Shown here in pieces: positions 41,121 through 60,634 of a stretch of DNA of 64,000 nucleotides. Numbering within the stretch: position 1 is the first letter of the stretch; the number at the start of each line of letters is the position of its first letter. Below the pieces are notes generated by a model that was not told the origin of the DNA, ran no database searches, and saw only the letters and a program-made list of their open reading frames with translations. Made by a program: the position numbers and the translations under genes. Source of the DNA: an uncultured Arcobacter sp. (GTDB lineage Bacteria; Campylobacterota; Campylobacteria; Campylobacterales; Arcobacteraceae); assembly GCA_964480765.1 (NCBI GenBank), contig CAYZST010000002.1:28485-92484 (forward strand), in the 5' to 3' direction.

Positions 41121-42614
41121 TTAGATAGTTCTCCATTTAGCTGGTCCAGTTGTATGAATTGAGTTTCCTTCAGTATCAACTGCAACTGTAACAGGCATAT
41201 CTTTTACTTCAAATTCATAGATTGCTTCCATTCCCATCTCTTCAAATGCAAGAATTTTTGCATTTTTAATTGATTGAGAAATTAGATATGCTGCTCCACC
41301 AGTAGCAATTAGATAAGTTGATTTATACTCTTTGATTAAATCAATAGTTGGCTGTTTTCTTTCTGCCTTACCAATCATACCCATAATACCAATTTCCATC
41401 ATATCTTTAGTAAATTTATCCATTCTTGTAGAGGTAGTTGGTCCAGCAGGTCCTACAACTTCATCTCTTACTGGGTCAACAGGTCCAACATAGTAGATAA
41501 ATCTATCTTTTAAATCAACTCCATTTGGAAGTGGTTTTCCAGCATTTTTATATTCAACAATTTTTTTATGGGCAGCATCTCTTGCTGTTAAAATTTTTCC
41601 AGATAATAGTAGAGTATCTCCAGATTTAAACTCTTGAAGTTTCTGTTTTGTTAAATCTTCAATATTTACTCTTTTAATTGTATCCATTGGAAGTTCAATA
41701 TCAGGCCAAATATCTAAATCTGGTTTTTCAAATTTGGCAGAACCATTTCCATCTAATTCAAAATGAATATGTCTAGTTGCTGCACAGTTGGGAATCATTG
41801 CAACTGGTAATGAAGCAGCATGACATGGGTAATCTAAGATTTTAACATCAAGAACAGTTGTTAAACCACCTAGACCTTGTGCTCCAATTCCAATTTTATT
41901 AATATCTTCATATAATCTAAGTCTCAACTCCTCTAGAGCATTTTTTGGACCTCTTTGTTTTAATTCATGTATATCAACATGCCCCATTAAAGCTTCTTTT
42001 GCAAGTAACATTGATTTTTCTGGATTTCCACCAATACCAATTCCTAGAATTCCAGGGGGACACCATCCAGCACCCATTTGCTCAACATTTGACATTACCC
42101 AATCATAAATTGAATCAGATGGATTTAATACTGCAAATTTAGATTTGTTTTCAGAACCTCCACCTTTAGCTGCAACAGTGATATCAAGCTTATCAGAGTT
42201 TGTATCTATTGAGTAATGAATTACAGCAGGTGTATTATTTTTAGTGTTTTTTCTCTCTCCTGCTGGGTCAGCAACAACTGAAAATCTTAATTTATTATCT
42301 GGATCAGTGTATCCTTTAGCAACACCTTCATTTAAAATATCTTCAATAGGTCTTGAAATATCAAGGTTAGCCTTTAAACCTACTTTTACAAATAGATTTA
42401 TACTTCCAGTATCTTGACAAAGTGGTCTATGACCCATTGCACACATTTTTGAGTTTATTAAAATTTGTCCAATTGCATTTTTTGCTGATTCAGACTCCTC
42501 TTTTTCATAAGCTTCAACCATTCCCTTTACGAAATCTTCAGGATGATAAAAAGAGATATATTGACATGCATCTGCTATGCTATTTATAATATCTTGTTCT
42601 GTGATTTTTCCCAT
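41121..42614 (-). CDS. Class I (Fe-S dependent) fumarate hydratase, fused alpha+beta domains
   Basis: 497 aa. 'CQDTGS' and the Cys ligands of Fe-S hydro-lyases. The C-terminal beta-domain carries 'GPTTSTRMD'. Confidence 0.85.
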   Translation of the reverse strand: MGKITEQDIINSIADACQYISFYHPEDFVKGMVEAYEKEESESAKNAIGQILINSKMCAMGHRPLCQDTGSINLFVKVGLKANLDISRPIEDILNEGVAKGYTDPDNKLRFSVVADPAGERKNTKNNTPAVIHYSIDTNSDKLDITVAAKGGGSENKSKFAVLNPSDSIYDWVMSNVEQMGAGWCPPGILGIGIGGNPEKSMLLAKEALMGHVDIHELKQRGPKNALEELRLRLYEDINKIGIGAQGLGGLTTVLDVKILDYPCHAASLPVAMIPNCAATRHIHFELDGNGSAKFEKPDLDIWPDIELPMDTIKRVNIEDLTKQKLQEFKSGDTLLLSGKILTARDAAHKKIVEYKNAGKPLPNGVDLKDRFIYYVGPVDPVRDEVVGPAGPTTSTRMDKFTKDMMEIGIMGMIGKAERKQPTIDLIKEYKSTYLIATGGAAYLISQSIKNAKILAFEEMGMEAIYEFEVKDMPVTVAVDTEGNSIHTTGPAKWRTI

Positions 42615-44855: not shown

Positions 44856-45698
44856 TTATTCTACAATTTGATGAACTTTACTACATTGAGATAGATGTAA
44901 ATCCATTCCAGACATATCTTGCATAATATCCTCAAAAGAGTGAACGTGAGCGTTATATACATATACAAAAATTTCATCCCCTTTTTCTAAGAAGTTATGT
45001 TTACCAAAATCTGTATATGCGGTTGCTCCAGCGGCTATTAATAATCCTTTATGTTTATTAATATCTTTTATAAAAGGAGGTAGCTCTTCTAAAGGTCCAC
45101 AATCCTCTTGTTCATTAAATTTTTCAATCATCCAATCTTTTAATTGTTCAAAAAAATATGAATATGATTTAACCGCACTAATAGTACCGTAATCTTTTAA
45201 AATACCATCTCTTCTAACAAAAGAAGCAATATGATATTTCCCAATGTTTCCATCTTCTGTAAATTTATCAATTTCAATAAACTCAGATGCAATTCCTTTT
45301 GAATATGCTCCCCAGTTTTTCTTTGTACTTAATTTATTTCCATCTTGAACTCTATTTGAACAATCATTAAATGCTCCAAAGTATCTAGGTTTTAAATCAA
45401 TTAATTTCTTGTTCTCATATACAAAATCACAAAGTAGAGCAACTTCTGCTTCAACTTGCAGTTGTTTCATATTATTAAGATTAATTTTATCCATACAAAC
45501 TGGAAAATCACCTAGAAATGAATTATGGTTTGGAATGTAAAAAGGGAATAACCCTTTAGGTGCATCTTTATCTTTTGTTTGAATTACTGAAAATTCATCT
45601 GCCTCACCAGCTTCACCTAAGTGGTTTGCAAAATTTCCTGCAACACCAAAACCTAAATAATCTTTTAACTCTTCTAAATCTATATGTATTTTATTCAT
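44856..45698 (-). CDS. Hypothetical protein, possibly remote fumarylacetoacetate-hydrolase (FAH)-fold
   Basis: 280-aa clean ORF. Weak FAH-like pattern by eye ('GVAGNFANHL', 'VEAEVALL', 'LIAAGATAYTDFG…GDEI'). Confidence 0.4.
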   Translation of the reverse strand: MNKIHIDLEELKDYLGFGVAGNFANHLGEAGEADEFSVIQTKDKDAPKGLFPFYIPNHNSFLGDFPVCMDKINLNNMKQLQVEAEVALLCDFVYENKKLIDLKPRYFGAFNDCSNRVQDGNKLSTKKNWGAYSKGIASEFIEIDKFTEDGNIGKYHIASFVRRDGILKDYGTISAVKSYSYFFEQLKDWMIEKFNEQEDCGPLEELPPFIKDINKHKGLLIAAGATAYTDFGKHNFLEKGDEIFVYVYNAHVHSFEDIMQDMSGMDLHLSQCSKVHQIVE

Positions 45699-45939: not shown

Positions 45940-45969
45940 TTAGAAAAAGAGAATAACCTCTTTTTCTAA
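45940..45969. repeat. Perfect 12-bp inverted repeat TTAGAAAAAGAG-N6-CTCTTTTTCTAA
   Basis: Arms at 45940-45951 and 45958-45969, 36 nt downstream of the stop of the 46005 gene on the minus strand. No adjacent U-tract in either orientation. Confidence 0.6.
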
Positions 45970-47010: not shown

Positions 47011-48069
47011 TTATTTTTTTGTTTTTCTTTTTGGGATTACTACTGTGTAATCTAAATCAAGTACAACATTTTTCAAGTACTTACCATTTTCATCTTTTGG
47101 TGACTCAATCTCATCAGGTTTTTGATTTTTAATTGCGATTGTTCTAAGTCTTAATAGACCAATATCTTCTCTTTTATGATTAATTACTTCTAATACTTCA
47201 GTATATGCATAGATTGTATCTCCTGCATATGTTGGATTAGCATGTGCACCAGAGTTAATGGCATACATCCATTGTGCATTTTGTAAACCATTAAATGAGA
47301 TTGCTCTTGCAATAGAGATTACTACTCCACCGTACATTAATCTCTCTTTCATAGGAGTAGATTTCATCATATGGTCATTAAAGTGAACCTTAGCATTATT
47401 TTGATAAAGCTTAGTTGCTAAAGTGTGATCACTATTATCAATTGTAATACCTTCTGGATGATTTAATCTTTCACCTTCTTTATAATCTTCAAAGAAAAAT
47501 TTTCCACCAGAGGCATCTGTGTCAACACATTTAATCTCTGGAATATTAATTTCATCTAAGATAGGAGTTGATTCTGCAAAAGTAGGAATCTGTTTAATTC
47601 CTGTTAAACTCTCTTTATTCTTTTTATGAACCATAACCCATCTTTTGAAGTTAAGTACTTCATCTCCATTCTGATTTACACCAATAGAGTGAACATATAC
47701 AACTCCTGATTTTCCATTTGAGTTCTCTTTTAATCCAATTATTGTTGAAGTCATACAGACTGTATCTTCAACATATACTGGATTAGGAAAGGCAATTTCT
47801 GCATAACCTAAGTTAGCAATTGCATTTAATGAAATATCTTGTACCGATTTGCCAAAAGTTAAATGAAACATCAAAAGATCATCAATTGGTCTTTTATTAT
47901 ATCCCATCTCTTTTGCAATAACATCTGATGAGTGCAGTGCAAATCTAGAACCAGTGAAGGCGATGTATAAAGATACATCTCCATCAGTGATAGTTCTAGG
48001 AAGAGGGTGTACTATTTTTTGCCCAATTGTAAAATCTTCAAAAAAGTTTCCAATATTTATTTTAGACAC
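47011..48069 (-). CDS. MaoC-like double hotdog enoyl-CoA hydratase, mesaconyl-CoA hydratase (Mch)-like
   Basis: 352 aa. 'GNFFEDFTIGQ', 'PRTITDGDV' and 'LNAIANLGYA' match my recollection of 2-methylfumaryl-CoA hydratases. The size fits a fused double hotdog. Confidence 0.7.
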   Translation of the reverse strand: MSKINIGNFFEDFTIGQKIVHPLPRTITDGDVSLYIAFTGSRFALHSSDVIAKEMGYNKRPIDDLLMFHLTFGKSVQDISLNAIANLGYAEIAFPNPVYVEDTVCMTSTIIGLKENSNGKSGVVYVHSIGVNQNGDEVLNFKRWVMVHKKNKESLTGIKQIPTFAESTPILDEINIPEIKCVDTDASGGKFFFEDYKEGERLNHPEGITIDNSDHTLATKLYQNNAKVHFNDHMMKSTPMKERLMYGGVVISIARAISFNGLQNAQWMYAINSGAHANPTYAGDTIYAYTEVLEVINHKREDIGLLRLRTIAIKNQKPDEIESPKDENGKYLKNVVLDLDYTVVIPKRKTKK

Positions 48070-48078
48070 AAGTTCTCC

Positions 48079-50598
48079 TTATTTATTAAATAGGTTTTGA
48101 CCTAAAGATTTATAAGTATCATATAGAGTAATCATTTTCTTAGCCCAAACGATTCTACATCTATCAACTAGTTTACCTTTAAATGAGATAACCTCTTTAC
48201 CTTCTTTTTCAGCCTCTTCATACTTGTTAATCATCTCTTCATACTCTTGAACTTCTTTTTGCTTTGGAGTAAAGATATCATTAATATACTCAACTTGAAT
48301 TGGATGAATAAGTGCTTTACCATCAAATCCAATGTTATATGCATCTTTTGTTGAGTCTTCACAAGCGAATTCATCTTCAACATCATAATGAGGTCCATCA
48401 ATTACTGTTTTACCATATGCTTTTGCAGATAAAGCAATTCTTGCAAGATAGTTAAACATGGCTTTAGAACCTTTTTTAATATCAATTTGAAGTCTATTTG
48501 CTAAGTTATTTGAACCAACAACAACAACTTCAAGTTTTGAGCTTGATGCACAAATATCTGGCGAGTTTAAAATTGCTAATGGAGTTTCAATCATTACCAT
48601 CATAGTAAGTTCAGGGTCTAATTCCATTAAGATTTTTTCAGCTTCAAGAATCTGCTCTTTTGTTTCAATAAGAGAGAATAAAATTCCATCAATATCTAAT
48701 TCACGAGCTAGTTCCATATCTTTTTTGAAGTCTTCACTTCCTAAGTTATTTACTCTTAAGATTCTCTCTGACTCACCAAATTTTGCACCATCCTCTTTGT
48801 ATACTTCTCTAATAACATTTCTTGCAGCTTGTTTTTGCTCTTGTAAAATTGCTTCAAGATCAAATACAACTGTATCAGCAAGAATTGTTTTAGATTTTTG
48901 AACATATTTTTTATTATAAGCAGGAACAAATAACATTGATCTTCTTGCTTTATACTTAATAATCTCTTCACCACTTACATTTGAATTATAAATATCGTGT
49001 AAATTTTTAACTAACTGTTTTCTTAATACTTTTCCATTCTTTGTTCTTGGGTAATCTTTCATACCAAAGATTGTTTTTGGTGCTTTATATTTTGCTAAGT
49101 TAGCTTGAGAATATTCAAGAATCTCTTGTTCTTGTTTTTCACTTAACTCTTCATGTCCAACAACAGCAATTGCAACGATTACTTTATCTTTTTCTATTTC
49201 TAAACCAAATGCAACACAATCAGCTACATCTTTGTGAGTTTTTACAACTCTTTCAATTTCATGTGGAGATACTCTAAATCCAAAGGTATTAATGATGTCA
49301 TCTTTTCTACCAATAAACCAAATATATCCATCTTTATCTCTTTTTGCATAATCTCCTGTAAAGAACCAACCATCATGTCTAGCCTTTGCAGTCTCTTCTT
49401 CAAGTTGCCAGTACTCTAAAAATAGTCCTGGATCATCCTCTCCAATACAAATCATACCTTCTTCTTCTAAACCAACTTCTTCTAAAGTTTCAGGATTTAA
49501 AAGTTTTACAATATGTCCTGGTTGAACAAATCCAGCAGAACCAGGTCTAATTGGGTTATTTTTAGAGTGAGAAATATAATATGAACATTCAGACATACCA
49601 ATTGCTTCAAAGATATCTTGTTTGAATCTATCTCTCCATAATCCAATCATCTCATCAGATAAATGTTCTCCTGCTGACATACAATATCTTAATGATGGAC
49701 AATCATTAATTGTAAATTCAGTCTTTTGAATAATTTGTCTATAAATTGTTGGTACTCCAATAAATATTGTACAATTATGTTTTTTAATTAAATTAACCCA
49801 CGTTGAAGCATCATTTGCACCTTCATATGCAATTACTGTGTGACCATTAAATAATGGATCCATTAAAGCTGAACCTAATACATACGTCCAGTTAAATTTA
49901 CCAGAGTGCATAATTCTATCATTTTGTTTAAAATCAAACCAATATTCTGTTGCTGGTGTTCTACCAATTAAAGATCTATGTGAGTGTAATACACCTTTAG
50001 GGTATCCTGTTGTTCCAGAAGTATATACTAAATATGCAGGCTCACCAGATTTTGATGGATAATGATTGGGTGTTTTATCACTCTGTTCTAAAATTTCATT
50101 TAATGCAAATACTTGCATTCCTTTTGGAACATTATATTCTTCTACACTATCAGTTCCAGCAACAATAATAGTTTTTAAATTATCTAAATTCTCTAAGTAT
50201 GGAGTTAAGTTCTCATACATAGTTGCAGATAACACAATTGCTCTTGCTTGAGAATCTTCTGCAAGATATTTCACTTCAGAACCTGATAATAAAGTTGATG
50301 TAGGTACAGCAATAATACCAGCTTTAATTGCTCCAAAGAACGAAATAGGATATGCAAGAGAGTTTTTTAAACAAACTAATACTCTATCTCTAGCTTCAAA
50401 ACCTAAGCTTTGTAAAAAATTACAAACTTGGTCTGATTTTTCAGCTAAATCTTTATAAGAAATTTCGTCAGTACCAAGCTTATCATCTTCGATAATCATT
50501 GCAGTGTTATTCTCTTTATCTGTTCCAACATGAATAGATGTACAAGCAACACCAATATTTAAAAATTCAGGTACTTCAATTTTTACATTTGGACTCAT
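48079..50598 (-). CDS. Fusion protein: AMP-forming acyl-CoA ligase (about 540 aa) plus C-terminal CitE/HpcH-like domain (about 290 aa)
   Basis: 'YLVYTSGTTGYPKGVLHSH', 'TGDYAKRDKDGYIWFIGRKDD' and 'PRTKNGKV' are adenylate-forming motifs. They are followed by 'RRSMLFVPA', 'FDLEAIL', 'MIETPLA' and 'FDGKALIHPIQV'. The reading frame is continuous over 839 codons. Confidence 0.85.
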   Translation of the reverse strand: MSPNVKIEVPEFLNIGVACTSIHVGTDKENNTAMIIEDDKLGTDEISYKDLAEKSDQVCNFLQSLGFEARDRVLVCLKNSLAYPISFFGAIKAGIIAVPTSTLLSGSEVKYLAEDSQARAIVLSATMYENLTPYLENLDNLKTIIVAGTDSVEEYNVPKGMQVFALNEILEQSDKTPNHYPSKSGEPAYLVYTSGTTGYPKGVLHSHRSLIGRTPATEYWFDFKQNDRIMHSGKFNWTYVLGSALMDPLFNGHTVIAYEGANDASTWVNLIKKHNCTIFIGVPTIYRQIIQKTEFTINDCPSLRYCMSAGEHLSDEMIGLWRDRFKQDIFEAIGMSECSYYISHSKNNPIRPGSAGFVQPGHIVKLLNPETLEEVGLEEEGMICIGEDDPGLFLEYWQLEEETAKARHDGWFFTGDYAKRDKDGYIWFIGRKDDIINTFGFRVSPHEIERVVKTHKDVADCVAFGLEIEKDKVIVAIAVVGHEELSEKQEQEILEYSQANLAKYKAPKTIFGMKDYPRTKNGKVLRKQLVKNLHDIYNSNVSGEEIIKYKARRSMLFVPAYNKKYVQKSKTILADTVVFDLEAILQEQKQAARNVIREVYKEDGAKFGESERILRVNNLGSEDFKKDMELARELDIDGILFSLIETKEQILEAEKILMELDPELTMMVMIETPLAILNSPDICASSSKLEVVVVGSNNLANRLQIDIKKGSKAMFNYLARIALSAKAYGKTVIDGPHYDVEDEFACEDSTKDAYNIGFDGKALIHPIQVEYINDIFTPKQKEVQEYEEMINKYEEAEKEGKEVISFKGKLVDRCRIVWAKKMITLYDTYKSLGQNLFNK

Positions 50599-52106: not shown

Positions 52107-52847
52107 GTGCAAATACAAAGTCCAAATAAATCATTTTCAAAAGGTTTACAAGTATTAAAAGAGATAATGAAATCTGCTAAACCATTAACAGCAAATGTTT
52201 TATGTCAAAAATTAAGTATAGATAAAAGCACTATGTCAAGATTAATTACAACTTTGATGAGTGAGGAGTTTATAGAATATAAAGGGGATTCAAAAGAGAT
52301 TATACTTAGTGATATTTTAAGAAAAATTGTACATAAAGATGATAGAGAGAAAATTGTAGAAAAAACAAGATCTCTTTTAGATGAGATTTTTCTTATTACT
52401 AATGAAGCTTCATATTTAGGTATTTTAGATAATAACTTAACCTTGTATTTAAATCAGGTTGATAAATCAAATAGGGTGATTAAAACAAGAGATTCAATTG
52501 GACTTCATTCTCCATTACATACTAATGCTTTTGGTAAAATTTTAATTACTTTTAGTAATAAAGTTGATATTGAAAAATTAGATTTAAAAAAGTATACCTC
52601 AAATACTATTACAAGTGTTACAAAATTACAAAAAGAGATTGAGTTAATTAAACAAAGAGGTTATGCAATTGATAGTGAAGAGTATGAATTTGGACTAAAA
52701 TCAGTTGCTGTGCCATATTTTAACAAGCAAAATAAATTTGTTGGAACAGTTGGAATTTCTGGTTTGTCAGTTAGATTAGAGAATGAATCTTTACATAAAT
52801 TTGGACAAGATATTTTTAAATTAGTAAACACATTTATGACAAAGTAG
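52107..52847 (+). CDS. IclR-family transcriptional regulator
   Basis: 246 aa starting at GTG. N-terminal wHTH 'KGLQVLKEI…LTANVLCQKLSIDKSTMSRLITTL'. The C-terminal effector domain carries 'GYAIDSEEYEFGLKSVAVP'. Confidence 0.85.
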   Translation: MQIQSPNKSFSKGLQVLKEIMKSAKPLTANVLCQKLSIDKSTMSRLITTLMSEEFIEYKGDSKEIILSDILRKIVHKDDREKIVEKTRSLLDEIFLITNEASYLGILDNNLTLYLNQVDKSNRVIKTRDSIGLHSPLHTNAFGKILITFSNKVDIEKLDLKKYTSNTITSVTKLQKEIELIKQRGYAIDSEEYEFGLKSVAVPYFNKQNKFVGTVGISGLSVRLENESLHKFGQDIFKLVNTFMTK

Positions 52848-52850
52848 ACT

Positions 52851-53756
52851 CTATTTTAGAGTCTCTTTCTTATTTGATAAATATTCATGGGCTAAATATG
52901 AACTTCTTGCATATGGAGTAGAGTGTACAAAACTAAATCCTAAATCAAGGGCAAGCTCTTTATATTTTGCAAACTGCTTAGGTGTAACAAACTCTTTAAC
53001 TTTTTCATAATCTCCAGATGGGGCTAAATATTGACCAATACTTAAAAACTCACAACCAACTTCCCTTAAATCTTTAAATACTTGAATCATCTCCTCTTCA
53101 GTTTCACCAAGACCAACCATTAATGCAGATTTTGTTTTAACTTTATCTCCTCCAAGCTCTTTTAATCTTCTTAATACTTCAAGTGATCTTTTGTATGAAG
53201 CATTTCTTCTAATATGGTATAAAGATGGAACTGTTTCTACATTGTGTCCAATAATTACAGCACCACTATCAACAACTTTTTGTAATGATTCATCATTCCC
53301 TTGAAAATCTGGAATAAGAATTTCAACTTGTGTTTCAGGAGATTTTTCTAAAATATTTTTAGTAACTCTAAAAAACTGAGATGCACCACCATCTTTTAAA
53401 TCATCTCTAGCAGGACTAGTAATAACAACAAATTTAAGACCAAGTTTAATTACTGACTGAGTAACTCCATCAATCTCTGCTAAATCAACCTCTGTTGGTT
53501 TTCCTGTGTGAACATTACAATATGTACATCTTCTTGTACAGATATTACCAAGAATTAAAAAGGTTGCATTTTTCTTTGCATAACATTCAGAAATATTTGG
53601 ACATTTAGCTTCTTGACAAATTGTATGTAATCCATGTTCTCCTAATAAATCTTCCATCTCTTTTTGTGCATGGGGAACTAATTTTTTTCTTAACCATTCA
53701 GGTTTTTTAAAATCTACTTTTTTCTTTGTAGTAAATTTAGTTTCTACTATAGTCAT
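52851..53756 (-). CDS. lipA: Lipoyl synthase
   Basis: 'CQEAKCPNISEC' and the radical-SAM 'CTRRCTYCNV' motifs. 301 aa. Confidence 0.95.
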   Translation of the reverse strand: MTIVETKFTTKKKVDFKKPEWLRKKLVPHAQKEMEDLLGEHGLHTICQEAKCPNISECYAKKNATFLILGNICTRRCTYCNVHTGKPTEVDLAEIDGVTQSVIKLGLKFVVITSPARDDLKDGGASQFFRVTKNILEKSPETQVEILIPDFQGNDESLQKVVDSGAVIIGHNVETVPSLYHIRRNASYKRSLEVLRRLKELGGDKVKTKSALMVGLGETEEEMIQVFKDLREVGCEFLSIGQYLAPSGDYEKVKEFVTPKQFAKYKELALDLGFSFVHSTPYARSSYLAHEYLSNKKETLK

Positions 53757-54474
53757 ATTTATCCTTTAGTAAAGAGCTTTTGGTCTCTTCTTCATCTTTT
53801 GTTAACTGTGAAAGTTCAATTTCTACATTAAAACACTGTTTAAAAGAGTCAATAAGTCCTTTTATTGTCTCTTCAAAGTTTATATCTATTTTCATATCTT
53901 CTAAAGAGTTTCCAAACATTTCTTTATCATTTGTTTTAAAAACAGGTATTGAACCATGTTGAAAAATTGCTTTTTTTGTTCTTCTTTGTGCATTTCCACC
54001 AATTTTTTTACTATTTATTAATATATCATAAGCTTCAAAACCTATTTGACAAAACTCACTTTTAGACAATTGGATATTCTCATCATCTTTTGCATAACAA
54101 ACATATAAGCCAAGATTTTTATAAAAATTAAGTATAAATTGACATATCTTTTCATAAGATTTTTTTATACTTAAACCTTTTAAAATTTCACTTGGAATAA
54201 TAATAGAATAGGATACATCGTGTCCATGAAATAGTATCCCTCCACCTGTAATTCTTTTTGCAGCATTTTTATTTGGATTCTTTATAAAAGGATAAGTTAT
54301 AAAATCTTGTGAAATACCTATAGTAATAGAGTCATCCTCCCAAGTATACAATCTTAAAATTGCATAATCCCCTTGATTATAATTTTTTAATAGGGCTTCA
54401 TCTATTGCCATATTTTCTTTTGCTGATTTTTTATCAGTTATAATAACTCTAAACTTACTTTTAGTATCAATCAA
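53737..54474 (-). CDS. Lipoate-protein ligase / octanoyltransferase family protein (LplA/LipM-like)
   Basis: BPL_LplA_LipB-type motifs 'RITGGGILFHG' and 'KIGGNAQRR'. Overlaps lipA by 20 nt. Confidence 0.75.
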   Translation of the reverse strand: MIDTKSKFRVIITDKKSAKENMAIDEALLKNYNQGDYAILRLYTWEDDSITIGISQDFITYPFIKNPNKNAAKRITGGGILFHGHDVSYSIIIPSEILKGLSIKKSYEKICQFILNFYKNLGLYVCYAKDDENIQLSKSEFCQIGFEAYDILINSKKIGGNAQRRTKKAIFQHGSIPVFKTNDKEMFGNSLEDMKIDINFEETIKGLIDSFKQCFNVEIELSQLTKDEEETKSSLLKDKYDYSRN

Positions 54475-54653
54475 TTATAATAAATCCTATTATTGAGTTT
54501 GTTTAAAAAAACTTATGTTATTAAAATATCGCGGATATGATTAATAACCTTAAATTGTCGCGTTTTTTCATTATAATTTCATTTTTATATAACAAAACTT
54601 AGAAAAAAATATTAATTTTTAAAAAACAAAATAATTTAAGATAATTAAAGTAT

Positions 54654-54733
54654 CATATGTTCACAATTCGTTTTTATGGTATCACAGGATACACATTCTT
54701 TACATAGTGAACATATGTTCAGTTGTTTTTATG
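54654..54733. promoter_or_regulatory. Array of dyad and direct repeats upstream of aceE (ATATGTTCA core x3)
   Basis: CATATGTTCAC (54654-54664) is the reverse complement of GTGAACATATG (54707-54717). There is a perfect 12-bp palindrome GAACATATGTTC (54709-54720). Direct repeats are ATATGTTCACAATTCGTTTTTATGG (54655-54679) and ATATGTTCAGTTGTTTTTATGG (54712-54733). A nested hairpin is GTATC-ACAG-GATAC (54679-54692). Confidence 0.6.
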
Positions 54734-54779
54734 GGAATAATAAGAAGAAATTAAACAAATTTTAAGCAAGGAAGTATGA

Positions 54780-57452
54780 ATGTCAGATTTAAACTTAAAC
54801 GATATTGATCCAGCAGAAACATTGGAATGGATAGAGGCTTTAGATGCAGTTTTAGAAGAAGAGGGACCAAAAAGGGCTCATTTTCTTTTAGAAAAGCTAA
54901 TTGATAAAGCTAGAAGAAAAGGTACATATTTACCTTTTAATTCTACTACAGCTTATGTTAATACTATTCCAGTTGAACATGAGCCAAAGATGCCTGCTGA
55001 TCATGATTTAGAGAGAAAAATTAGATCTATTATTAGATGGAATGCGACTATTATGGTACAAAGAGCTTCTAAGAAAAATTTAGAACTTGGAGGGCATATT
55101 TCATCTTTTCAATCATCAGCTACATTATATGATGTTGGGTTTAATCACTTTTTTAGAGCTCCAAGTGAAAAAGATGGTGGAGACTTAATCTTTTTTCAAG
55201 GACATATTGCTCCTGGTATTTATGCAAGAAGTTTTGTTGAAGGAAGAATTACTCAAGAACAAATGGATAACTTTAGACAAGAGGCATTTGTAAATGGGTT
55301 ATCTTCATATCCACACCCTAAATTAATGCCAGATTATTGGCAATTTCCAACAGTATCAATGGGACTTGGTCCAATTCAAGCAATTTATCAAGCAAGATTT
55401 TTAAAATATCTAACTCATAGAGGTATAAAAGATTGTTCTGAGCAAAAAGTATATTGTTTTATGGGCGATGGTGAGTGTGATGAGCCAGAATCTTTAGGAG
55501 CAATTGGATTAGCAGGTAGAGAAGGTTTAGATAACCTTGTATTTGTTATTAATTGTAACTTACAAAGATTAGATGGCCCTGTTAGAGGTAATGGAAAAAT
55601 CATTCAAGAACTTGAAGGAAATTTTAGAGGAAACGGATGGGAAGTTACTAAAGTTATCTGGGGTAGACTTTGGGATGCTTTATTAAGAAAAGATAAGTCT
55701 GGAAAATTGTTAAAACTAATGGAAGAGACTGTTGATGGGGAGTACCAAAACTTTAAACAAAAAGGTGGTGCTTATACAAGAGAGCATTTCTTTAATAAAT
55801 ATCCTGAAACAGCAAAATTAGTAGAGAATATGTCTGATGATGAAATCTGGAGATTAAACAGAGGTGGACACGATCCTGTGAAAGTTTATGCTGCATTTAA
55901 AAAAGCAAAAGAGACTAAGGGTAGACCAACTGTAATTTTAGCTAAAACTGTAAAAGGTTATGGTATGGGTCAAGCAGCAGAGGGTAAAAATATTGCCCAT
56001 GGTGTAAAAAAAGTAGATACAGCTTCTTTAAGACAGTTTAGAGATAGATTTGATATTCCTGTTTCAGATGAAGAGATTGAAAATTTACCATACTATCAAC
56101 CAGATGAAGACTCTCCTGAAATGAAATATATGAAAGAAAGAAGAGCACAGTTAGGTGGATTTGTTCCCCAAAGAAGAGAAAAATTTACTGAAATATTAGA
56201 AATTCCTTCATTAGATGCTTTTAGTGCAGTTGTACAAGGTTCAGCAGATAGAGAGATTTCTACAACTATGGCTTTTGTTAGAATTTTAAATGTTTTAGTA
56301 AAAGATAAAAAAATTGGAAAAAGAATTGTTCCAATTGTTCCTGATGAAGCTAGAACATTTGGTATGGAAGGTATGTTTAGGCAAATTGGTATTTATTCAT
56401 CAGAAGGACAAAAATATATTCCTCAAGATAGAGACCAAGTAGCATATTATAAAGAGGATAAAAAAGGACAAGTACTTCAAGAGGGGATTAATGAATTAGG
56501 TGCAATGGGCTCTTGGATAGCAGCAGCAACTTCTTACTCAGTAAATAACTGTCCAATGATTCCTTTTTATATTTTCTATTCAATGTTTGGATTTCAAAGA
56601 ACTGGTGATATTTGCTGGGCGGCAGGTGACCAAAAAGCAAGAGGTTTCTTAGTGGGAGGAACATCTGGTAGGACAACATTAAATGGTGAAGGTTTACAGC
56701 ATGAAGATGGACATTCACATATTATTGCAAACACAATTCCAAATTGTGTAACTTATGATCCAACATATGGATATGAGTTAGCAGTTCTTATTCAAAATGG
56801 TATAGAAAGAATGTATGGTGAAAAACAAGAGGATATATTCTTTTACTTAACTACATTAAATGAAAATTATAAACAACCTGCAATGCCTGAAGGTGTGGAA
56901 GAAGGTATTATTAAAGGTATCTATAAATTTAAAGATGTAGAGGCTAAAAATAATCATAAAGTTAAGTTACTTAGTTCAGGTTCTATTTTTCAACAAGTAC
57001 TTGCTGCCTCACAGATTTTAGCAGATGAGTATGATATTGCATCTGAAGTTTATTCAGTGACTTCATACAATGAGTTAACAAGAGAAGCTCAAGAAGTTGA
57101 AAGAAGAAACTTATTAAATATTGATATGGAAGATGACGTTCCATATGTAGATCAAGTTCTTGGAAATGATGATGAAAATATCATTGTTTCTGCAACTGAT
57201 TATATAAAAGCTTATTCTGAACAATTAGTACCATTTGTAAAAGGTAGTTTTAAAGCACTTGGAACTGATGGTTTTGGTAGATCTGATTCTAGAGCTAATC
57301 TAAGAAGGTTCTTTGAAGTTGATACAAACTTTATTGTCTTCACAACATTAGCACAATTAGCTAAGTTGGGTAAAATTGAAAAATCTGTTGTTTCTGAAGC
57401 AATGAAGAAATATAATATTGATCCTAATAAAGATAATCCATTACATGCATAA
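54780..57452 (+). CDS. aceE: Pyruvate dehydrogenase E1 component (homodimeric AceE type)
   Basis: 890 aa with the ThDP motif 'GDGECDEPES…NCNLQRLDG'. Overall AceE-like length and order. Confidence 0.95.
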   Translation: MSDLNLNDIDPAETLEWIEALDAVLEEEGPKRAHFLLEKLIDKARRKGTYLPFNSTTAYVNTIPVEHEPKMPADHDLERKIRSIIRWNATIMVQRASKKNLELGGHISSFQSSATLYDVGFNHFFRAPSEKDGGDLIFFQGHIAPGIYARSFVEGRITQEQMDNFRQEAFVNGLSSYPHPKLMPDYWQFPTVSMGLGPIQAIYQARFLKYLTHRGIKDCSEQKVYCFMGDGECDEPESLGAIGLAGREGLDNLVFVINCNLQRLDGPVRGNGKIIQELEGNFRGNGWEVTKVIWGRLWDALLRKDKSGKLLKLMEETVDGEYQNFKQKGGAYTREHFFNKYPETAKLVENMSDDEIWRLNRGGHDPVKVYAAFKKAKETKGRPTVILAKTVKGYGMGQAAEGKNIAHGVKKVDTASLRQFRDRFDIPVSDEEIENLPYYQPDEDSPEMKYMKERRAQLGGFVPQRREKFTEILEIPSLDAFSAVVQGSADREISTTMAFVRILNVLVKDKKIGKRIVPIVPDEARTFGMEGMFRQIGIYSSEGQKYIPQDRDQVAYYKEDKKGQVLQEGINELGAMGSWIAAATSYSVNNCPMIPFYIFYSMFGFQRTGDICWAAGDQKARGFLVGGTSGRTTLNGEGLQHEDGHSHIIANTIPNCVTYDPTYGYELAVLIQNGIERMYGEKQEDIFFYLTTLNENYKQPAMPEGVEEGIIKGIYKFKDVEAKNNHKVKLLSSGSIFQQVLAASQILADEYDIASEVYSVTSYNELTREAQEVERRNLLNIDMEDDVPYVDQVLGNDDENIIVSATDYIKAYSEQLVPFVKGSFKALGTDGFGRSDSRANLRRFFEVDTNFIVFTTLAQLAKLGKIEKSVVSEAMKKYNIDPNKDNPLHA

Positions 57453-57459
57453 GGAGTAA

Positions 57460-59190
57460 ATGATGAGCAAAATTGTAGATATTTTTATTCCTGATTTAGG
57501 TGCAGATACTGATGTGGATTTAATTGAGATTATGGTTTCTGTTGGAGATGAAATAGAGGTTGAGGATGGACTTATTACACTTGAAACTGAAAAAGCTTCT
57601 ATGGATGTTCCAACTACACATGCAGGTATTGTAAAAGAGATACTTGTAAATGTTGGTGATAAAATGAATAGTGGTGATTTAATTGCAAGGGTCGAAGTTC
57701 AAGAAGAAGCTTCGGAGGAAACACCAGCAATTGAGGATGCTCCTCCTACTATAACAGAAACTTCTACATCTGAACAAGAGTTGCCATTAGTAACTGAAAC
57801 ATCATCTGAACCAATAAAATTAGAAGCTGTCGAAGCTGAATTGAAAGCTATCTCAGCAGCAGGTGCAGAAGTCTCTTGTCAATTTGTAAATGAACAAACT
57901 ATTTGTTCAGTGGTTGAAGAGGTACATATTCCAGATTTAGGTGCTGATAAAGATGTAGATTTAATTGATGTTATGGTTTCTGTTGGTGATACAGTAGAGT
58001 TTGAAGATGGTCTTATTACTTTAGAGACTGAAAAAGCTTCTATGGATGTTCCAGCTCCATTTGCAGGTGAAATTATTGAACTATTTGTAAATGCAGGAGA
58101 TAAAGTTAACTCTGGAGATTTAATTGCAAAAATGGTTAAAACTGTTGTAATGGAAAATAAAGTTCCAACTCCTGCAAAGATTGAAGTTTCTAAAGTAGAA
58201 GAAAAAACAGTTCCTGTATCTGTTCAAGAAGTTGCTGCTACCTCGTCAGTAGAAGGAACTGCTGTATTAACTCAAAAAGCTAAAAAAGTTTATGCCTCAC
58301 CATCTGTTAGAAGAGTTGCAAGAGAGTTTGGGGTTGATTTAAGTTTTGTAAAAGGAACTGGTAGAAAAGGAAGAATCTTAAAAGATGATATTAAAGCTTA
58401 TGTTAAAGAGCAGTTATCAAAACCTGTTGTTGCAGCTTCAAGTGGTACGGGTCTAGGATTTAACTTTCCAGAACTTAAAGAGATTGATTTCTCTATTTTT
58501 GGTGAAATAGAAACAGTTGAATTAAGTAGAATTCAAAAAATTTCTGGTCCTTCCTTACATAGAAACTGGGTATCTATGCCTCATGTCACTCAATTTGATG
58601 AAGCAGATATTACAGAGATGGAAAGCTTTAGAAAAGAGCAAAATGCAGTTGCAGATGGATTTAAACTATCTCCATTAGTATTTGTCTTAAAAGCTGTTGC
58701 AAAAGCATTAGAGATTCATCCAAAATTTAATGCTTCATTAAGTCCAGATGGTCAAAGTTTGATTATGAAAAAATATTTCCATATAGCAGTTGCTGTTGAT
58801 ACTCCAAATGGTCTAGTAGTTCCTGTAATTAGAGATGTTAATAAAAAAGGTTTCAAACAAATAGCCCTTGAGTTAAAAGAGATTTCGAAAAAAGCAAGAG
58901 AAGGAAAATTAAAGACACAAGATATGCAAGGTGCTTCATTTACAATCTCTTCTTTAGGTGGAATTGGAGGAACTAAGTTTACTCCAATTATTAATGCTCC
59001 TGAAGTGGCAATTTTAGGTTTATCTAAATCTGAAATGAAACCAGTTTGGAATGGAGAAAACTTTGCACCAAGATTAATGTTACCACTATGTTTATCTTAT
59101 GATCATAAAGTAATTGATGGTGCAGATGGTGCAAGATTTACAACTACAATATCTAAGCTATTAAGCGATATTAGATTATTAAGTCTATAA
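57460..59190 (+). CDS. aceF: Dihydrolipoyllysine-residue acetyltransferase E2 with two lipoyl domains
   Basis: Two 'LETEKASMDVP' lipoyl-Lys motifs, Ala/Pro/Glu linkers, a peripheral subunit-binding domain 'ASPSVRRVAREFGVDL' and the catalytic 'DHKVIDGA'. Confidence 0.95.
   Translation: MMSKIVDIFIPDLGADTDVDLIEIMVSVGDEIEVEDGLITLETEKASMDVPTTHAGIVKEILVNVGDKMNSGDLIARVEVQEEASEETPAIEDAPPTITETSTSEQELPLVTETSSEPIKLEAVEAELKAISAAGAEVSCQFVNEQTICSVVEEVHIPDLGADKDVDLIDVMVSVGDTVEFEDGLITLETEKASMDVPAPFAGEIIELFVNAGDKVNSGDLIAKMVKTVVMENKVPTPAKIEVSKVEEKTVPVSVQEVAATSSVEGTAVLTQKAKKVYASPSVRRVAREFGVDLSFVKGTGRKGRILKDDIKAYVKEQLSKPVVAASSGTGLGFNFPELKEIDFSIFGEIETVELSRIQKISGPSLHRNWVSMPHVTQFDEADITEMESFRKEQNAVADGFKLSPLVFVLKAVAKALEIHPKFNASLSPDGQSLIMKKYFHIAVAVDTPNGLVVPVIRDVNKKGFKQIALELKEISKKAREGKLKTQDMQGASFTISSLGGIGGTKFTPIINAPEVAILGLSKSEMKPVWNGENFAPRLMLPLCLSYDHKVIDGADGARFTTTISKLLSDIRLLSL
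57484..58137 (+). repeat. Intragenic tandem duplication encoding the two lipoyl domains
   Basis: About 213 nt at 57484-57696 is repeated at 57925-58137 (offset 441 nt). It encodes IPDLGAD…GLITLETEKASMDVP…SGDLIA in both copies. Confidence 0.85.
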
Positions 59191-59191
59191 G

Positions 59192-60634
59192 GTGTCTATT
59201 ATGAATGAAATAAAAGGGCAAGTATTAGTAATTGGAGCAGGACCTGGTGGATATTCTGCTGCTTTTAGATGTGCAGACTTAGGTTTAGATACAGTATTAG
59301 TTGAGAGACACCCAACTTTAGGTGGTGTATGTTTAAATGTTGGTTGTATCCCTTCAAAAGCATTACTACATGTTGCAAAAGTGATTGAAGAGGCTGAACA
59401 TATTGAACATGCAGGTATTAAATTTTCTAAACCAGAAATTGATTTACCAAGTGTTGCAGCATATAAATCAGGAGTTGTAAAAAGACTTACTGACGGTTTA
59501 GCAGCAATGGCTAAAATGAGAAAAGTAACTATTATTCAAGGTATTGCAAAATTTGTTGATGAATACTCAGTTATTGTTGAGCATACTGATAAAAAGAGTG
59601 AATCAACTAAGGTTATTTTTGATAGTTGTATTATTGCAGCAGGAAGTCAGAGTTCAAAAATGTCTTTTATTCCTCATGAAGACCCAAGAATTTGGGATTC
59701 AACAAATGCCTTAGAAGTTAAAGAAGTTCCAAAAAGATTACTTGTAATGGGTGGTGGTATTATTGGACTTGAAATGGGTACAGTATATCAAAAACTAGGT
59801 TCTAAGGTGGATGTTGTTGTTAGAGGACCACAAGTTATGACTGGTACAGATAAAGATATTGTAAAGGTTTATACAAAAGCAAATGAGAAGAGATTTAACT
59901 TTATGTTTAAAACTCAAACTCAGGCTATTATTCCTAAACAAGATGGTATCTATGTAGAGTTTAAAGGAGATAATGCACCTGAGCCTCAAACCTATGATGC
60001 GGTATTAGTTGCAATGGGTAGAACCCCAAATGGTTTAAAATTAGGTTTAGAAAGTACTGGTGTAGAAGTAGATGAGTATGGATTTATCTTAGTTGATAAT
60101 CAAATGAGAACAAAAGTTCCTCATATTTTTGCTATAGGTGATATTATTGGTGGACCAATGTTAGCACATAAAGCAGTTCATGAAGGTCATGTTGCAGCAG
60201 AGGTTATCGCAGGACATAAAGTTTTCTTTGAGCCAAAGCAAATTCCAGGAATTGCATATACTTTCCCAGAAATTGCAACAGCGGGTCTTAGTGAAATTGA
60301 AGCAAAGGAAGCGGGAATTGATTACGAAGTAGCAACTTTTCCTTGGTCAGCTTCTGGTAGAGCTTTAGCAGCAGATGTTGCTGGTGCTGGTATGACAAAA
60401 TTAATTTTTGATAAAGAGAGTCATCAATTAATAGGTGGAGCAATTGTTGGAGATAATGCAGGTGAATTATTAGGTGAAATTTCCCTTGCATTAGAGATGG
60501 ATTGTGATGCAGAGGATATTGGATTAACAATTCATGCTCACCCAACACTACATGAATCCGTAGGTATGTGTGCGGAAATTTTCCATGGAAGTATTACAGA
60601 TTTACCAAATCCAAAAGCTATAAAGAAGAAGTAA
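59192..60634 (+). CDS. lpdA: Dihydrolipoyl dehydrogenase E3
   Basis: 'GAGPGGY', redox-active 'GGVCLNVGCIPSK' and C-terminal 'HAHPTLHE'. The start is GTG 59192 or ATG 59201. Confidence 0.95.
   Translation: MSIMNEIKGQVLVIGAGPGGYSAAFRCADLGLDTVLVERHPTLGGVCLNVGCIPSKALLHVAKVIEEAEHIEHAGIKFSKPEIDLPSVAAYKSGVVKRLTDGLAAMAKMRKVTIIQGIAKFVDEYSVIVEHTDKKSESTKVIFDSCIIAAGSQSSKMSFIPHEDPRIWDSTNALEVKEVPKRLLVMGGGIIGLEMGTVYQKLGSKVDVVVRGPQVMTGTDKDIVKVYTKANEKRFNFMFKTQTQAIIPKQDGIYVEFKGDNAPEPQTYDAVLVAMGRTPNGLKLGLESTGVEVDEYGFILVDNQMRTKVPHIFAIGDIIGGPMLAHKAVHEGHVAAEVIAGHKVFFEPKQIPGIAYTFPEIATAGLSEIEAKEAGIDYEVATFPWSASGRALAADVAGAGMTKLIFDKESHQLIGGAIVGDNAGELLGEISLALEMDCDAEDIGLTIHAHPTLHESVGMCAEIFHGSITDLPNPKAIKKK

Follow-up and report, generated by a model that had tools for sequence, protein, structure and literature searches.

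Why should an acyl-CoA ligase carry a CitE-like domain whose metal site is degenerate? The question is raised by a locus in the genome of an uncultured Arcobacter sp. (Arcobacteraceae; assembly GCA_964480765.1, contig CAYZST010000002.1, positions 28,485 to 92,484), analysed here as a window of 64,000 nucleotides that is AT-rich in composition (about 28% G+C). The protein concerned is encoded by a single uninterrupted open reading frame (ORF) of 839 codons, whose extent was given correctly by the original prediction, a reading of the letters of the window that left the strand, the minus one, unstated (Table 1). Pfam recognizes an AMP-binding domain at residues 31-397 (PF00501, 240.9 bits against a cut-off of 29.9), AMP-binding_C at residues 447-523 (PF13193, 42.3 bits against 24.5) and HpcH_HpaI at residues 553-766 (114.2 bits against 25), and only AMP-binding-type and HpcH_HpaI/C-C_Bond_Lyase families are present among the matches listed. 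The identical protein is recorded on 12 contigs, and the ligase-CitE fusion is real. The ligase part is apparently intact, as the ANL core motifs TSGTTGxPKG (T193-G202), TGD (T414-G415-D416) and GRxDD (R431/D433/D434) do not vary among the aligned homologues, fused or unfused, and neither does the C-terminal catalytic Lys (K523, in NGK).

The degenerate metal site

In CitE-like enzymes Mg2+ is held directly by a Glu and an Asp (Glu141 and Asp168 in the malyl-CoA lyase of Rhodobacter sphaeroides, hereafter MCLR; the Asp is Asp184 in MCLC), the Glu-Asp pair of the DLED segment (Glu44/Asp45 of MCLR) binds two metal-bound waters, and acid/base chemistry is carried out by Arg76 and by the lid residue Asp299 (PMC3832036). 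Both the Glu and the Asp ligand were described as absolutely conserved throughout the lyases, thioesterases and malate synthases of the superfamily, and the same was stated for the second-shell pair, the Arg and the lid Asp, except that a Glu takes the place of the lid Asp in the cluster of the malyl-CoA thioesterase, Mcl2 (PMC3832036).

In phmmer alignments of the fused domain with 5UGR, 5VXC, 4L9Y and 6AQ4, the residue falling on the ligand Asp of the G-x-x-D motif is N698 (in VGSNNL), while E671 (in MIETP) corresponds to the ligand Glu, R615 to the catalytic Arg and D812 to the lid Asp. A 13-sequence MAFFT alignment including both paralogues of the window again set N698 opposite the ligand Asp, and hhalign of the fused against the unfused relatives (probability 100%) paired GSN-N with GTT-D, gap-free nearby. 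The Asp-to-Asn change at the metal ligand, the most important of the three substitutions noticed in the original prediction, is thus found by three methods, and the profile alignment, considered there as a way in which an acidic residue might be restored to the ligand position, leaves N698 in place; the motifs listed as retained (RRSMLFVP, MIETP and FDGKALIHP) are all present. Counting along the phmmer alignment, we take the position of N698 to be that of Asp138 in the CitE of Mycobacterium tuberculosis.

The window protein therefore has counterparts of the ligand Glu of MCLR (E671), of its catalytic Arg (R615) and of its lid Asp (D812), and none of the direct ligand Asp168. At the second-shell pair it shows one acidic residue, E582, followed by A583; the register of FDLEAIL is ambiguous by one residue across aligners, so that either an Asp-to-Ala change or a one-residue deletion would account for it, and which member of the pair is missing depends on gap placement. 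D812 stands opposite a Glu in the unfused sister clade discussed below (MAFFT and hhalign), and the Mcl2-type lid Glu is accordingly absent from the fusion. Both stand-alone paralogues retain the canonical residues in the MAFFT alignment, as had been predicted for the first and third motifs (DLEDG/IEH/GIHDF/lid MLD in one, DCEDG/IET/GLMDF/lid LHD in the other). By overall sequence the fused domain is the most CitE-like of the three, with 114 bits to HpcH_HpaI vs. 32 and 35 bits for the paralogues, but it lies below the NCBIfam equivalog cut-offs for CitE proper (TIGR01588, 155 bits vs. 443) and for the Ccl of the itaconate pathway, RipC (NF038242, 103.5 bits vs. 375).

The AlphaFold2 (AF2) model of the domain (predicted local distance difference test, pLDDT, 90.3) comprises eight beta/alpha units, with the first barrel strand beginning at residue 554, E671 placed right after strand 5 and N697/N698 right after strand 6, and it superposes on the malyl-CoA lyases and CLYBL in 4L9Z, 5UGR and 5VXC with template modelling (TM) scores of 0.78-0.84. 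Malyl-CoA/beta-methylmalyl-CoA lyases and CLYBL (4L9Y, 5UGR, 4L80, 5VXC) are the best matches in sequence and fold (E = 2e-24 to 1e-22), sharing with the fused domain the TIM barrel with lid, the catalytic Arg, the lid Asp, the Glu ligand and the HP motif; unlike them, the fusion has its Mg-ligand Asp replaced, a single acidic residue in the DLED segment and a ligase attached, and the identity is 21-25%. The domain is hence CitE-like by fold and profile, while it lacks one defining catalytic feature of these enzymes, the Asp ligand.

Conservation and origin of the fused clade

A scan of one genome per species returned 590 relatives of the ligase, and the best 80 of these 590 loci were analysed. 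All of them carry the fusion, which is complete and in frame in 76; contig ends truncate it in three (L051, L068 and L086), and in a Halarcobacter ebronensis chromosome reconstructed as a metagenome-assembled genome (MAG; L084) the ORF breaks off after 507 residues and a hydratase ORF of 150 amino acids or more was not recovered, for which a frameshift, an error of sequencing or disruption of the operon in this assembly could be responsible. The best related loci belong to Halarcobacter and other Arcobacteraceae (85-89% protein identity), and further hosts include Candidatus Marinarcus, Sulfurospirillum (68-70% identical), Gammaproteobacteria MAGs comprising Sedimenticolaceae, Chromatiales and Piscirickettsiaceae (63-66%), and one Thermodesulfovibrionales MAG. 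Two loci binned as Sulfurovum sp. and Candidatus Paceibacteria (L026 and L033) have the operon at 80-82% identity to the window, and are probably mis-binned Arcobacteraceae contigs.

Residue frequencies were scored in 77 fusions (the window and the 76 complete loci) and in a set of 120 close orthologues at least 79% identical. Position 698 is never Asp or Glu in the 77 fusions (K 45, N 13, T 9, S 4, H 3, R 2, Q 1), and is K in 86, N in 25, S in 8 and T in 1 of the close orthologues; it ranks 35th in variability among 285 positions, and in its surroundings G695 and L699 are invariant and N697 occurs in 76 of the 77. The Thermodesulfovibrionales MAG (L079) reads G-N-D-N-L, with Asp at 697; no other fusion has an acidic residue close to the lost ligand, and this Asp may represent a register-shifted metal ligand. 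The second ligand is less uniformly affected: E671 is Glu in 68 of the 77 fusions and D, S, Q or A in nine, these replacements occurring in some Gammaproteobacteria and Campylobacterota MAG lineages, complete Chromatiales and Sedimenticolaceae fusions included, while both A583 and E671 are invariant in the close orthologues. R615 is R in 74 fusions and K in three, and D812 is invariant.

The position of the "PK" Lys, read as Leu in ILFSLIE, behaves differently. The reading is correct for this sequence, but it is lineage-specific: position 643 is Lys in 43 of the 77 fusions (then C 8, Q 7, Y 5 and others), is the 16th most variable of the 285, and is mostly K (77), Q (24) or L (14) in the close orthologues. 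Residues 643 and 698 co-vary by lineage (643/698 pairs K/K 43, C/T 7, Q/N 5, Y/H 3), which suggests that these positions, located where strands 4 and 6 end, are opposed across a repeatedly remodelled pocket. In other genomes the fusion is thus widespread and the loss at 698 universal among the fusions, while position 643 varies; the loss of the metal ligand, and not the Lys-to-Leu change, is therefore a defining trait of the fused clade. As none of the fused homologues examined has retained this Mg2+ ligand, which both paralogues of the window keep, the domain is unlikely to be a canonical Mg-dependent C-C lyase, in line with the original suggestion that it may be a non-lyase.

Loss of a ligand might be taken for decay, but dN/dS ratios (nonsynonymous to synonymous substitution rates) calculated against the six closest loci lay at 0.11-0.20 in the CitE-like part, vs. 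0.07-0.13 in the ligase: the fused domain is kept by purifying selection, and decay is ruled out. Residues R552, R553, N617, D734, D759-G-K761, H765-P766-Q768 and the lid D812 are invariant in the 77 fusions. The constraint on the domain has nonetheless changed, since only 17% of its positions are invariant vs. 44% of those of the ligase, and its identity to the unfused counterpart is 37% vs. 54-66% for the other four operon proteins.

Closest to the fused domain are stand-alone proteins of about 292 amino acids (P0273, P0294, P0386 and others), which form its sister clade. Out of 119 such proteins, 117 have the ligand Asp and 117 the lid Glu; their DLED segment reads DL[DE][PS] or DLQES, also DLGDP, and the equivalent of position 643 is N, R or K. 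A single acidic residue in this segment is consequently found in unfused relatives that have both metal ligands, so that FDLEAIL, although correctly read in the original prediction, is not specific to the fusion. Neighbour joining unites the Asp-less fused domains in one monophyletic clade, with the lid-Glu stand-alone proteins as its sister. The same operon, with the ligase and CitE-like genes unfused, exists in Aliikangiella and at two further loci of Gammaproteobacteria, in the order 373-aa lyase, 546-562-aa ligase, CitE-like gene (overlapping that of the ligase by 4-8 nt, where the fusion has its linker) and hydratase, together with a divergent lyase of about 330 aa, and on a fourth, short contig the two unfused genes are adjacent without overlap. 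The unfused pair of Kangiellaceae and other Gammaproteobacteria (L001, L087, L088, L089) shares with the window its operon order and a ligase 58% identical, and differs in having separate genes and a CitE-like protein with both Mg ligands and a lid Glu. By gene order and phylogeny, the fusion arose from two adjacent overlapping genes, which certain other Gammaproteobacteria still have as separate ones.

The two genes appear to have become fused on at least two occasions. A 2.8-kb metagenome contig (P0214) encodes a ligase-CitE fusion falling inside the unfused lid-Glu clade, which keeps the Mg-ligand Asp (GTTDL) and the lid Glu, and whose two parts are equally diverged from the unfused pair (59% each); being fused and yet provided with the Asp, it indicates that fusing by itself does not require loss of the metal site. 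P0140, on a 1.6-kb metagenome contig (L006) with the C-terminus of a homologue of the 327-aa lyase directly followed by a CitE-like ORF of the fused type, was considered as an intermediate fused lineage with the Glu ligand lost, and was set aside because only a remnant of about 45 residues of the ligase C-terminus is present; the contig represents an assembly chimera or else a locus that was rearranged or truncated. The full-length search of a library of representatives at 50% identity, from which these sequences derive, was dominated by non-ribosomal peptide synthetase megaproteins, and P0121, P0122, P0140 and P0214 were its useful hits. In Usitatibacter and in a metagenome of the JGI (L003/L004), a lid-Glu CitE-like gene, an Mch-type hydratase gene and a gene for a 335-aa lyase, without the ligase in Usitatibacter, stand between a GntR regulator and prpB, prpC, prpD and acnD, with sdh and citrate synthase adjoining; the location of this trio beside methylcitrate-cycle genes links the module to propionyl-CoA metabolism.

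Possible function of the fused domain

The operon of the fusion consists of the genes for a 376-aa canonical lyase, the fusion, a 352-aa hydratase and a 327-aa canonical lyase, separated by 15, 9 and 22 nt, an order kept in 76-78 of the 80 loci. The architecture is not new, being known since 2007: AB1918 of Arcobacter butzleri RM4018 (cluster ab1917-ab1921) is an orthologue of the fusion, with A. butzleri proteins about 80% identical, and was reported to contain CaiC (ligase) and CitE domains like the window protein, its neighbours being likewise a hydratase gene, a class I fumarase gene and two genes of CitE-like proteins (Miller et al., 2007; PMC2147049). In the part of that genome paper dealing with the cluster, any of the three CitE-like proteins was speculatively regarded as a possible malyl-CoA or citramalate lyase, with neither mention of the missing metal ligand nor an experiment (PMC2147049). 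Our literature searches on the fusion, the operon and DUF5718 retrieved this paper only, and found no mention of the lost metal ligand, of the fused clade as a subfamily, of the unfused ancestral operon or of an experiment; the literature on C5-dicarboxylate metabolism and on Kentron did not cover the operon, and searches by locus tag yielded catalogue numbers of antibodies.

A domain without the metal site but with its Arg/Asp pair under selection is probably no ordinary lyase, and the reading we prefer, to which we give an even chance of being correct, is that of a functional, non-canonical and metal-independent partner of the ligase. The two stand-alone paralogues would perform the C-C chemistry, while the fused domain, no longer a Mg-dependent C-C lyase, would still bind a CoA thioester and perform a metal-independent step coupled to the ligase; most likely, one acyl-CoA would be hydrolysed or handed over, and its acid or CoA re-activated by the ligase. 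Together the two domains could substitute for a CoA-transferase not seen in the operon; none was called in or beside the operon in the flanks of the loci inspected. The route would be a C5-dicarboxylate pathway through beta-methylmalyl-, mesaconyl- and citramalyl-CoA, interconverting propionyl-CoA plus glyoxylate and pyruvate plus acetyl-CoA, with the linked class I fumarase as a candidate mesaconase, an activity of which class I fumarases are capable (PMC4682846). The scheme would extend the speculative one of Miller et al. (PMC2147049). Indirect support for the thioesterase function already suggested in the original prediction may come from the sister clade, whose lid Glu has been reported as a signature of no other group than the Mcl2 cluster (Erb et al., 2010, cited through PMC3832036) and whose genes adjoin that of an Mch-type hydratase; from this signature we infer that the sister clade includes Mcl2.

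Several observations weigh against this interpretation. The fused domain has the lid Asp and not the Glu of the malyl-CoA thioesterase, and the assignment of Mcl2 to the sister clade goes back to one literature statement, the literature search on Mcl2 having yielded neither sequence nor motif data. All biochemically characterised CitE-like enzymes, the thioesterase included, reportedly need Mg2+ or Mn2+ (PMC3832036), so that a metal-independent hydrolysis would be unprecedented in the fold. E671 and N697, kept in 68 and 76 of the 77 fusions respectively, might still hold a metal with the help of substrate and water ligands. Finally, the searches of NCBIfam and the Protein Data Bank (PDB) with the ligase gave no substrate assignment: none of the NCBIfam matches listed reaches its cut-off (the best being PRK06187, 308 bits vs. 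476), and the best PDB match, at about 190 bits, is an anthranilate-CoA ligase, not a close characterised structure.

A bolder version, which we consider improbable, sees in the fused barrel a new metal-independent catalytic type that, with the ligase, moves CoA between carboxyls or acids at the cost of ATP and replaces an Mct-type CoA-transferase; for example, mesaconyl-C1-CoA or beta-methylmalyl-CoA would be hydrolysed and the product re-ligated as citramalyl- or mesaconyl-C4-CoA, the linked class I fumarase serving as mesaconase.

Among the explanations differing from that of a catalytic partner, the one surviving best, although we judge it unlikely, is a pseudoenzyme: a dead barrel that would mediate trimerisation or docking, bind CoA or acyl-CoA for allosteric control or channelling, or recruit the lyases. 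Loss of the direct ligand everywhere, and of the Glu ligand also in some lineages, speaks for it, as does an evolution faster than that of the rest of the operon; moreover, CitE-like proteins form obligate trimers or hexamers, each site being closed by the lid of a neighbouring subunit (PMC3832036), and such a barrel would hold three ligase units together. The role of a mere scaffold, also put forward in the original prediction, is instead made less likely by dN/dS ratios close to those of the ligase and by the persistence of two residues with catalytic roles, D812 and R615 (the latter replaced, by Lys, in only three fusions), in a domain where just 17% of the positions are invariant, and the near-invariant N697 beside the lost ligand suggests a site remodelled and not abandoned.

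The possibility that the fused domain is still a lyase, according to the logic of ATP-citrate lyase (ACL) invoked in the original prediction, appears to us a doubtful one. The ligase would form malyl-CoA, citramalyl-CoA or a similar thioester and the fused domain would cleave it, either with a Mg2+ held by E671, N697, substrate and water or with a Lys or His at 698 as electrophile in place of the metal. The catalytic Arg, the lid Asp, E671 in most fusions and the fold are all kept, the HpcH_HpaI score is far higher than those of the paralogues, position 698 is cationic or ionisable (K, R or H) in 50 of the 77 fusions, and the proposal of Miller et al., in the section on the cluster, extended to any of the three CitE-like proteins as a possible malyl-CoA lyase (PMC2147049). 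On the other hand, the ligand Asp was called absolutely conserved in the superfamily (PMC3832036), position 698 is highly variable and neutral (N, T, S or Q) in 27 of the 77 fusions, several lineages are without either ligand, and two canonical lyases are already available in the operon. With the metal ligand lost and these two lyases at hand, this reading was dropped as the leading explanation. ACL combines a succinyl-CoA-synthetase-like, ADP-forming module with a citrate-synthase-like lyase, folds unrelated to those of the fusion, and neither ATP-grasp/succinyl-CoA-synthetase-like nor citrate-synthase-like domains occur among the Pfam families listed for the window protein; its likeness to ACL, or to citryl-CoA synthetase plus citryl-CoA lyase, is therefore conceptual only, activation and thioester chemistry residing in one polypeptide, and we found no evidence behind the analogy.

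An artefact (misalignment, pseudogene or assembly chimera) is extremely improbable and effectively refuted since, apart from the one-residue ambiguity in the by-eye alignment of the first motif, three alignment methods concur on 698, the identical protein occurs on 12 contigs, 77 complete in-frame orthologues come from independent genomes, and the domain is under purifying selection.

Genomic surroundings and biological meaning

The features of the locus are collected in Table 1.

Table 1. Coordinates within the 64,000-nt window of the fusion gene, of the codons discussed and of neighbouring genes.
Feature	Position	Strand	Basis
839-aa ORF, ANL ligase and CitE-like domain in frame	48079..50598	-	Single ORF, Pfam domains
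AMP-forming acyl-CoA ligase part, residues 31-523	49030..50508	-	AMP-binding and AMP-binding_C
Short linker, residues 524-549, from AMP-binding_C to first barrel strand	48952..49029	-	Pfam limits and AF2 model
CitE-like (HpcH_HpaI) TIM barrel and lid, residues 550-839, degenerate metal site	48082..48951	-	Pfam, AF2, TM scores
E582-A583 codons, one acidic residue vs. canonical Glu-Asp	48850..48855	-	phmmer, MAFFT, hhalign
R615 codon, catalytic Arg of R-V-N motif, kept	48754..48756	-	Alignment; role per PMC3832036
L643 codon, at "PK" Lys position	48670..48672	-	Variable across fusions
E671 codon, second Mg2+ ligand (Glu of I-E-T), kept	48586..48588	-	phmmer and MAFFT alignments
N697-N698 codons, N698 in place of direct Mg2+ ligand Asp	48505..48510	-	Three alignments
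D812 codon, catalytic lid Asp, kept	48163..48165	-	Aligns with Asp299 of MCLR
Upstream 376-aa CitE-like paralogue, canonical residues	50614..51744	-	Pfam, motifs; in 78/80 loci, 15-nt gap to fusion
352-aa double hot-dog hydratase, mesaconyl-CoA hydratase type	47011..48069	-	MC_hydratase 77 bits; 76/80 loci; 9-nt gap after fusion
327-aa CitE-like paralogue, PDB 3QQW/3R4I family, canonical residues	46005..46988	-	E = 7e-141 to 3qqw; 76/80 loci
DUF5718 protein, often operon-linked	44856..45698	-	PF18985 319 bits; 50/80 loci
Class I fumarase, 3.4 kb downstream of operon	41121..42614	-	Fumerase and Fumerase_C
IclR-type regulator, divergent	52107..52847	+	IclR_C and HTH_IclR; 31/80 loci

In position-sorted gene order, the class I fumarase gene directly follows that of the 327-aa lyase in 33 of the 80 loci. 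The DUF5718 protein gave no sequence match in the PDB, and its AF2 model (pLDDT 76) matches members of the fumarylacetoacetate hydrolase (FAH) superfamily weakly (oxaloacetate decarboxylase Cg1458, YisK and KdaD; TM 0.44-0.50); the protein may belong to the same pathway as a 2-oxo-acid enzyme so far unrecognised. Between the gene of the 327-aa lyase and that of DUF5718, a gap of 306 nt contains a terminator-like inverted repeat with a 12-bp stem (45940-45969), and DUF5718 may for this reason be transcribed apart from the four-gene operon. On the other side (52851-60634), a lipoyl synthase gene on the minus strand lies beside those of pyruvate dehydrogenase E1 and E2, with a TTG-start minus-strand ORF that is a lipoate-protein-ligase-like candidate without profile confirmation and a third ORF assumed to be E3; the arrangement is ordinary-looking and brings the operon next to genes of pyruvate and acetyl-CoA metabolism.

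A specialist of these enzymes would not expect a CitE-like clade that is conserved and yet devoid of the metal ligand. As it is found in at least 80 species-level genomes without the Asp, and sometimes without both ligands, the clade constitutes a natural experiment on the role of the metal in the fold, and the existence of both fused and unfused versions of the operon makes a comparative biochemical test straightforward. The operon occurs in Arcobacteraceae, the emerging pathogen A. butzleri included, in Sulfurospirillum and in MAG lineages of Gammaproteobacteria, and since 2007 only a speculative pathway has been attached to it. The role of the fusion would probably show how glyoxylate, propionyl-CoA, pyruvate and acetyl-CoA are interconverted in these bacteria without isocitrate lyase or a dedicated CoA-transferase. 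If true, the relocation of CoA by the fused protein would point to a hitherto unnoticed form of the citramalate cycle, or of that half of the 3-hydroxypropionate bi-cycle in which glyoxylate is assimilated, spanning Arcobacteraceae, Sulfurospirillum and several Gammaproteobacteria MAG lineages (Sedimenticolaceae, Chromatiales, Piscirickettsiaceae).

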